Source: Escherichia phage MagusPhagus. Taken from it: DNA of 54,396 bases. Of this stretch, positions 21,089 to 21,256 are shown one piece after another; the first letter of the stretch is position 1, and the number at the start of each line of letters is the position of its first letter. The stretch lies in sequence record PP925836.1; one strand, given 5' to 3'. The notes under the pieces were generated by a model. That model was not told where the DNA came from, made no database searches, and saw nothing but the letters and a program-made list of their open reading frames with translations. Both the position numbers and the translations under genes were made by a program.

Positions 21089-21256
21089 AAAACCCCCCAT
21101 AAGTTACATTTTGTATATATATTTACGCGCTTCTACGCGAAAAATGAGATCTTCATCACAATGATTATAGCTAGTTTACAAAATGGCTTCACATAGTACG
21201 AAACAAGATGTATACAGAAAGCAAGAAGAAAGCAGTACCAACGAAGGAGGCCCAAA

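Follow-up and report, generated by a model that had tools for sequence, protein, structure and literature searches.

A conserved 24-base motif ahead of the M and portal genes of Escherichia phage MagusPhagus: a family-specific control site most likely acting in messenger RNA

The genes for the minor tail protein M and the portal protein of Escherichia phage MagusPhagus are each preceded by a copy of the same 24-base motif, which sequence comparison identifies as a real control site that most likely acts in messenger RNA. Near-invariance within the mEpimmI phage family, together with absence from outgroup phages, from Rfam and, beyond chance, from GTDB, marks the motif as a functional, family-specific element more tightly constrained than the essential proteins beside it. 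We tentatively read it as a leader-RNA element that acts sequence-specifically on processing, stability or translation; the chief rival, serious though itself somewhat unlikely, is a DNA operator. The window referred to throughout is the whole stretch of DNA analysed, 54,396 nucleotides of record PP925836.1.

Overall organization of the window

The window derives from a temperate siphovirus of the mEp021-like (mEpimmI) type, whose late genes occupy the minus strand (Table 1). Megablast searches with positions 20000-24000 and 1-8000 matched only the six sequenced mEp phages (mEp021, 010, 013, 044, 515 and 554), at 85-88% identity, and the TerL-portal junction gave additional matches in 35 E. 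coli prophages at 87-98%, in strains such as O157:H7 LSU61 and UMNK88. The mEpimmI group comprises Nus-dependent, non-lambdoid temperate siphoviruses that are as common in human gut E. coli as the lambdoid phages, and work on them has so far concerned immunity and N-type antitermination only (PMC11893012). That account of the family mentions neither the motif nor late promoters nor packaging sites, and no description of the motif was found in the literature searched. The left end of the window holds the plus-strand early replication operon in addition to the repressor gene. The phage uses an N-like protein (Gp17) with three nut sites (PMC11893012), and the Q protein of the window belongs to PF03589, whose family name Q-lambda is taken from PMC9388147.

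The earlier note had placed the motif upstream of M and the portal gene, and this context is borne out by the PF05939 and PF06381 matches, by the position of TerL upstream of the portal gene, and by the annotation of the M homologues of mEp021 and mEp554 as minor tail proteins. In E. coli RefSeq/PGAP annotation, the DUF1073/PF06381 portal homologue is mostly named 'anti-CBASS protein Acb1 family protein', apparently a misleading product of automatic naming. The J-like host-specificity gene (1478 aa) contains two tandem repeats, one of 108 nt in about 5 copies (14274-14758) and one of 21 nt in about 6 copies (14966-15091).

Table 1. Coordinates of genes, motif copies and other features discussed in the text
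Feature	Position	Strand	Details
CI-type repressor	1-648		left end of the window
boxA sequences of the phage	813-825; about 46549-46537 (-); about 54200 (-)
Claimed degenerate copy	2594-2616	plus	ATTTTTGCGTTGTAGCGCGTTTT; not accepted as a motif copy
J	13169-17605	minus
L	18827-19531	minus
M	20735-21088	minus	lambda-M-type minor tail protein; PF05939, E=2.8e-28; ATG at 21088
Motif copy 1 (M copy)	21122-21145	minus	reads ATTTTTCGCGTAGAAGCGCGTAAA; ends 33 nt before the M ATG
P_M, predicted sigma-70 promoter for M	21164-21192	minus	GTGAAG-17-TATAAT
Promoter of the plus-strand cluster	21188-21216	plus	TTCACA-17-TATACA, conserved
Tape-measure protein	22011-24359	minus
Major capsid protein	28145-29197	minus
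Portal	31800-33179	minus	PF06381, E=2.4e-20; portal protein in mEp021 annotation; ATG at 33179
Invariant non-coding block	33180-33229	minus	motif through portal Shine-Dalgarno to start codon
Motif copy 2 (portal copy)	33202-33225	minus	reads ATTTTTCGCGTAGCAACGCGTAAA; ends 22 nt before the portal ATG
Insertion of roughly 70 nt	upstream of portal motif		in relatives L005, L010, L018, L019, L034, L067, L072, L079, L189, L196, L197, L199, L200 and L203
TerL (large terminase)	33258-34742	minus	PF17289; terminase large subunit in relatives' annotation
TerS	34739-35224	minus	Sf6-type
Q protein	44381-45109		PF03589, Q-lambda family
CATTTTGTA occurrences	723, 3770, 7731, 12784, 21107, 21177, 24372, 24401, 24428, 39207, 40298, 46569, 46635, 53597, 54276

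Two copies of the motif

When the whole window was searched with up to three mismatches allowed, the consensus TTTACGCGYTKCTACGCGAAAAAT was found on the plus strand at the two sites only, each time as an exact match, and 100 dinucleotide shuffles of the sequence gave no match. The motif is to be read on the minus strand because the genes lie there, and in gene orientation its 24 bases run ATTTTT-CGCGTAG-NNN-CGCGTAAA. The two near-identical copies described in the earlier note therefore stand, although its coordinates were off by 1-2 nt, and the two ACGCG half-sites and the A5 tract that it had pointed out are both present. The portal copy is intercistronic, between TerL and portal, and begins 32 nt past the TerL stop codon. 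Ungapped similarity of the two copies spans 34 nt (21112-21145 against 33192-33225, 85%), and a duplication larger than about 34 nt was rejected, the similarity of the flanks being not significant either upstream (p=0.15) or downstream (p=0.20). The M leader also contains a conserved minimal start-stop ORF, ATGTAA (21103-21108 on the minus strand, 12 nt before the M ATG), adjoining TAACTTAT, which resembles the 'epsilon' translational enhancer of T7 gene 10.

Conservation in the mEpimmI family

An exact-pattern scan of IMG/VR returned 87 loci, all on mEpimmI-like contigs (mostly about 50-57 kb) and all upstream of M or portal, usually with one of each per contig. Circularity was avoided by gathering sites independently of the motif as well, through similarity to the M protein and through the portal ribosome-binding-site sequence. 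The M loci found by protein similarity (M at least 83% identical) had the motif at the same place in 31 of 31 cases, as against 0 of 49 outgroup loci with 64-68% identical M, many of which have an intrinsic terminator there instead. Portal loci found via the ribosome-binding site had the exact core in 48 of 49 viral loci, the single exception being one T-to-C change in the T-tract, and in all 23 metagenome loci of the family, whose identical cores added no covariation. Every relative examined has the motif at both positions; the search of related phage genomes that the earlier note had proposed thus found the element throughout, and its view of a regulatory site rather than a chance repeat is upheld.

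The strength of the constraint is apparent from 43 distinct M contexts and 40 distinct portal contexts. At the 21 fixed motif positions the mean non-consensus fraction is 0.001 in portal sites and 0.005 in M sites, compared with 0.022 and 0.034 at adjacent codon positions 1 and 2, 0.161 and 0.237 at adjacent codon position 3, and 0.103 and 0.108 over the 40 nt that precede the motif. At the portal gene, the invariant non-coding block extends beyond the motif, takes in the Shine-Dalgarno sequence AGGAG (33188-33192) and reaches the start codon, with a non-consensus fraction of 0.004 in the motif-to-ATG stretch, and the sequence immediately upstream of the motif varies, including a roughly 70-nt insertion in some relatives (Table 1). 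This insertion (GTTATTGATTATTATCAACTTCGAAAAATTTTCGAAGATGAAC...) lies between the TerL stop codon and the portal motif in about a quarter of relatives, is not in the window, contains a perfect palindrome, CTTCGAAAA/TTTTCGAAG, and may be a miniature mobile element.

Outside the family the motif disappears. Outgroup phages that share only TerL or portal (SPN3UB and ENT47670) are without it, and the 185,579 species-representative genomes of GTDB gave 5 exact-pattern matches, in unrelated MAGs and at about the chance number; a scan of these genomes seeded with the major capsid protein found no relatives. Rfam gave no match at gathering thresholds in the whole window, and near the copies only chance-level matches (E of at least 1).

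A repeated linker might lack any regulatory function, being kept alike by gene conversion or being only a boundary for module recombination. Sites of both classes include some with the middle triplet AAG and some with CAA, suggesting that the copies now and then undergo gene conversion with each other, and one relative (L080) has a different M allele behind an intact leader. Conversion within a genome, however, cannot explain near-identity over about 80 contexts in which synonymous sites have diverged by 16-24%, and the adjacent non-coding bases do vary; we regard a functionless repeat as very unlikely.

The claimed third copy

A third copy, degenerate and inverted, had been claimed near position 2600 in the rightward operon, and this claim does not survive comparison. 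A profile HMM (nhmmer) built from 32 distinct natural motif copies scored positions 2595-2613 on the plus strand at 5.4 bits (E=1.1), among a dozen comparable noise matches, and gave the two real copies E values of 3e-14 and 3e-13. A fuzzy match at the site costs 5 substitutions and 1 deletion, and equally poor matches occur elsewhere. The mEp021 sequence diverges mid-way through the putative copy, the second half being replaced where an extra gene is inserted, and two other relatives (L205 and L209) have a different gene downstream. The site stands in gene orientation for a plus-strand gene starting at 2661. We read it as a separate conserved intergenic segment at a mosaic junction of the early replication operon.

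The segment itself (2540-2660, plus strand) contains a perfect hairpin, TTGCGC-TTCTG-GCGCAA, followed by A6, and is taken as a mosaic junction because different downstream genes are joined just past it in different relatives. A hydrophobic mini-ORF of 33 aa lies at 2399-2500. An antisense sRNA from this region, pairing with the motif, was considered and dropped: mEp021 conserves neither the putative promoter of such an sRNA nor the second half of the site.

Transcription through the two copies

Both copies are predicted to lie in transcribed but untranslated RNA just ahead of a start codon. The M copy should be transcribed into the leader because it lies downstream of a predicted sigma-70 promoter, P_M, strong and invariant, which consists of a -35 hexamer GTGAAG (21192-21187), a 17-bp spacer containing CCATTTTGTAAAC and a -10 hexamer TATAAT (21169-21164), and is situated 18 nt upstream of the motif. 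Its position-weight-matrix score of 10.7 falls in the top 0.003% of window positions, and both hexamers are invariant across 35 distinct relatives. From the position of P_M we infer a transcription start near 21157; in the resulting M leader the motif would span about +12 to +35. Having no promoter, the portal copy would be transcribed only as part of a polycistronic RNA: the position-weight matrix gave no minus-strand candidate above background upstream of the portal gene. A -10-like CACAAT 17 nt upstream of the portal motif, at a spacing similar to that of the TATAAT of the M promoter, was rejected as its homologue; T6 is not conserved, and many relatives have CACAAC.

The earlier note had offered an internal promoter as one possible function. 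Such a promoter could serve the late genes or, on the plus strand, antisense transcription (TTTACG-17-TAGAAA). An internal promoter is indeed required for M, which is cut off from the tape-measure gene by an antisense cluster and a bidirectional terminator; TTTACG is invariant and matches the -35 consensus at 4 of 6 positions, and a weak plus-strand candidate (score 5.4) exists at the portal copy. The consensus promoter scan, however, found nothing at either motif copy, the position-weight matrix puts the M promoter at P_M, and the plus-strand cluster has its own promoter (Table 1) and therefore does not need the motif. The plus-strand -10 candidates differ by copy or relative (TGAGAT, TGATAA, TAAGAT, TAGAAA), a start toward portal would land inside or after the ribosome-binding site, and a promoter spacer would not require an invariant CGCG...CGCG. 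The motif itself is not a promoter, and its being part of one is decidedly improbable.

The row of late genes is broken by antisense clusters on the plus strand between tape-measure and M and between M and L, with terminators that include the bidirectional one at 21984-22006, and expression of the tail genes may depend on Q read-through as well as on promoters that belong to these genes. Divergent pairs of sigma-70-like promoters are predicted at the L-M break (19612-19641 on the minus and 19586-19614 on the plus strand) and at 21164-21192 (minus) with 21188-21216 (plus). A further antisense cluster lies upstream of the tape-measure gene, where a candidate promoter, GTTACA-16-TAAAAT, was read by eye at about 24400-24440. 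The cluster between tape-measure and M encodes a 51-aa ORF (21257-21412, plus) and then a protein with a ParE-like toxin domain (21430-21684, plus; PF24732), possibly a toxin-antitoxin module. A GC hairpin, CCCCGCGCGAAGCGGGG, present in opposite orientations at 13137-13163 and 20513-20539, looks like an intrinsic terminator after J (minus) and after the L-M antisense cluster (plus).

The sequence CATTTTGTA, often extended to CCATTTTGTAAAC, occurs 15 times in the window against 1.08 expected (Table 1). Its occurrences lie in or beside predicted promoters, namely in the repressor/early divergent region, at a PR-like promoter (54273 to 54245) and at the promoter immediately before nutR2, and also upstream of L, M (in the P_M spacer and downstream of the motif) and the tape-measure gene, often as inverted pairs. 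The sequence probably serves as a repressor operator, or as a promoter element that these regions share, linking the internal late promoters to immunity control. The L leader contains a near-consensus CRP-type site (TGTGA-N6-TCACA) at 19549-19564, TGTGATCTGCGTCACG, and a weaker TGTGA-N6-TCTCA stands at 21159-21144, past the -10 of the M promoter.

Structure of the motif

Natural variation falls mainly in the middle triplet, which is AAG, CAA, AAT, AGG, AAA, CTA or CGA. Rarer changes replace the first C of either CGCG by T or the A of TAG by G, shorten the T-tract by one T, or delete 1 nt in the centre. Read as RNA, the motif is a U-tract followed by a stem-loop of 4 bp, CGCG/CGCG, with a fifth pair, U-G or U-A, possible in 23 of 26 distinct variants (third triplet base G or A), and the stem can be extended by flanking UUU and AAA across a U-U mismatch. 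Folding of either context gives this hairpin as the centroid structure, with a predicted energy of about -6 kcal/mol. Read as DNA, the motif is a pair of CGCGTAR direct repeats 10 bp, or one helical turn, apart.

Pair counting found 94% of cells paired and two-sided changes in 0 of 9 proposed pairs, at low sequence diversity. The only stem changes are two one-sided C-to-U substitutions on the mRNA strand, compatible with G-U pairing, which on the opposite strand would make A-C mismatches. Folding z-scores are unremarkable, at -0.9 to -1.3 around the copies and -0.17 for the whole portal spacer.

Several known kinds of site were considered and rejected. A scan found no intrinsic terminator at either copy, and on the minus strand the U-run precedes the hairpin; it is on the plus strand that an A-run follows it. 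The lambda CII site is TTGC-N6-TTGC, with boxes that flank the -35, and those of the motif do not; at the -10 distance expected of a CII-type site, about 12 bp past the second repeat, stand CAAAAT (M), CAGGAG (the portal Shine-Dalgarno) and CGATAT (M variants). The RfaH ops element, for which we take GGCGGTAGnnTG to be the 12-nt consensus on the non-template strand, aligns only at GTAG(C), 4-5 of 12 positions. Among host transcription-factor sites, none of those for CpxR, PhoP, NarL, TyrR or CRP is known to account for the conserved CGCG cores.

Comparison with antitermination sites

The earlier note had also suggested antitermination. In principle the motif could modify polymerase by giving Gp17 another boxB-like target, by acting as a put-like RNA, or by loading a factor in the manner of an ops or Q site. 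The phage uses an N-like protein with three nut sites (PMC11893012) and a Q-lambda-family protein, and terminators lie in the antisense clusters that interrupt its late operon. Like the nut boxB of lambda or mEp021, recognized by N or Gp17, the motif in its predicted fold combines a short GC-rich stem and a purine-rich loop in transcribed non-coding RNA, and it shares the octamer GCGTAGAA with the nutR2 region.

Unlike nut sites, however, the motif lies in the late operon, not just past an early promoter, and has no detectable sequence similarity to the three nut sites. The boxA sequence GCTCTTTAAAAAT is absent beside either copy: upstream of the hairpin stands GATCTCATTTTT at M and TTTTCTATTTTT at portal, and the boxA type of this phage is GCTCTTTAA. 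The loop, UAGNNN (UAGAAG or UAGCAA), is purine-rich and, as we read it, neither G-N-R-A nor GAAAA-like, in contrast to those of nutL and nutR2. Proteins of the Q-lambda family bind an element situated between the late-promoter -35 and -10, and a pause element resembling a -10 follows at about +1 to +6 (PMC9388147); the motif is downstream of the M promoter and promoterless at portal, unlike such loading sites, and in the profile search none of the early or late promoters had a sequence related to it. With neither boxA, nor an evident GNRA-type boxB loop, nor an ops match, the antitermination proposal finds no support, and we give it a very low probability.

The three nut-like sites of the window, at 813-849 (plus), 46513-46549 (minus) and about 54190-54205 (minus), correspond to mEp021 nutL, nutR2 and nutR1. 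In each, a short GC hairpin comes after boxA, which is GCTCTTTAAAAAT at the first two sites and GCACTTTAAAAAT at the third. The nutR2 site has its own promoter-like sequence, TTGTTA-16-TATACT (46592 to 46565).

DNA operator or leader-RNA element

The serious alternative is that tandem CGCGTAR heptamers 10 bp apart, with the A/T tract, bind a head-to-tail dimer of a regulator, phage- or possibly host-encoded, which would repress P_M, for example in the lysogen or early in infection, and modulate transcription into the head genes at the TerL-portal junction. Invariant 7-mers, CGCGTAG and CGCGTAA, separated by a freely varying 3-nt linker, are the pattern expected of tandem protein sites; each of the two natural substitutions hits position 1 of the repeat unit, at the edge of such a site; invariance without covariation is typical of protein-DNA sites; and the position of the M copy relative to a strong promoter is the classic one for an operator. 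Direct-repeat sites are known in phages, the Q21 binding element being two TGAGCA repeats (PMC6606751). In the motif, as in that element and the lambda CII site, a variable linker separates two short identical boxes that lie about a helical turn apart. The Q21 element, however, is placed between the -35 and -10 of its late promoter, and the Q of the window, being of the Q-lambda family, uses a different kind of site.

The weak point of a DNA operator is the portal copy, which has no promoter to regulate, and a roadblock in mid-operon under Q-modified polymerase would be an unusual design. Gene orientation and contiguity with the ribosome-binding site would be unneeded, and in one relative (L117/L119) the spacing is 9 bp, not 10 bp. 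No candidate binding protein was found among the small late-region ORFs scanned, and the motif is not in the immunity region, where the known repressor must act.

We return to the leader-RNA reading, which we prefer as plausible and compatible with all observations. It is favoured because orientation and closeness to the start codon are common to both copies and a promoter is present at one only; because the portal block is continuous with the translation-initiation region; because the rare stem substitutions preserve pairing on the mRNA strand only; and because the central 1-nt deletion is tolerated. Conservation of the fixed positions far above that of codon positions 1 and 2 and position 3 supports it, as does the hairpin being the centroid structure in both contexts. 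It is weakened by the lack of compensatory change in any of the 9 pairs, by the unremarkable folding energies, and by the self-complementarity of the CGCG stem, which looks equally like a direct DNA repeat; moreover, each CGCG is followed by TA, as a repeat would explain more readily than a hairpin.

The motif would act in cis on the late mRNAs, in the M 5' leader and the TerL-portal intercistronic spacer, where a trans-acting factor (a host RNase or RNA-binding protein, or a phage protein) would recognize the RNA sequence-specifically and so set the expression of the gene immediately downstream. In its most concrete version, an RNase E-type cleavage within the AUUUUU tract would leave the portal and M messages with a 5' end protected by the stem-loop, in which the terminal U's pair with UAAA, and would so uncouple the stability and translation of these messages from the upstream RNA. 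An AUUUUU tract beside a stem-loop fits the loose preference of RNase E for AU-rich single strands adjoining a hairpin. The invariance of the stem, the UAG and the UAAA exceeds what RNase E needs, however, and such strictness suggests a more specific factor besides RNase E. What the sequences show directly is the motif with its placement, orientation and extreme conservation, in untranslated RNA whose transcription is predicted; action as RNA, hairpin formation, and cleavage or factor binding are presumed rather than observed steps.

Known intercistronic processing and stabilizing elements include the RNase III sites of T7 and, in ompA or papBA, an RNase E site with a 5' hairpin. The motif is like these in being a conserved putative hairpin repeated in a long phage operon just before the gene served, and like the RNase E and stabilizer elements in that an AU-rich single strand adjoins the stem-loop; unlike T7 RNase III sites, it has a stem of only 4-8 bp, which is far too short, and unlike RNase E sites its sequence is kept much more strictly. 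The Mu Com/mom leader and other phage translational operators offer a second precedent, a sequence-specific RNA target in a late-gene leader near the start. The motif likewise sits in late-gene leaders close to the translation start, but the portal start region is not predicted to be sequestered (z = -0.17) and no Com-like factor was found. Steric repression at M is weakened because the hairpin lies 14-23 nt upstream of the Shine-Dalgarno sequence, which is too far.

A narrower proposal, that the motif is the operator of a sequence-specific post-transcriptional regulator, a phage RNA-binding protein or nuclease encoded among the roughly 25 small late-region ORFs, appears quite unlikely. Pfam and PHROGs searches of about 25 ORFs between Q and the terminase genes nominated no trans-acting factor, returning 'unknown function' only, except for one predicted membrane protein and one ASCH-like protein (the latter by eye).

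Significance for the mEpimmI phages

The motif is the most strongly conserved non-coding sequence seen in the mEpimmI morphogenesis region, and it marks exactly two genes. As judged by comparative analysis, it is a new, family-specific cis-element among the short leader and operator motifs of phage late operons. A DNA operator would point to a further regulator acting on internal late promoters. An RNA operator or processing site would mean that late-gene dosage is set not by Q alone but also after transcription, and the motif would offer a compact 24-nt handle for engineering or detecting the mEpimmI prophage family. Should a post-transcriptional regulator indeed be involved, synthesis of the portal and of the tail-tip protein M, both low-copy assembly proteins, would be co-ordinated independently of Q-dependent transcription, which would constitute a new layer of late-gene control in temperate siphoviruses.
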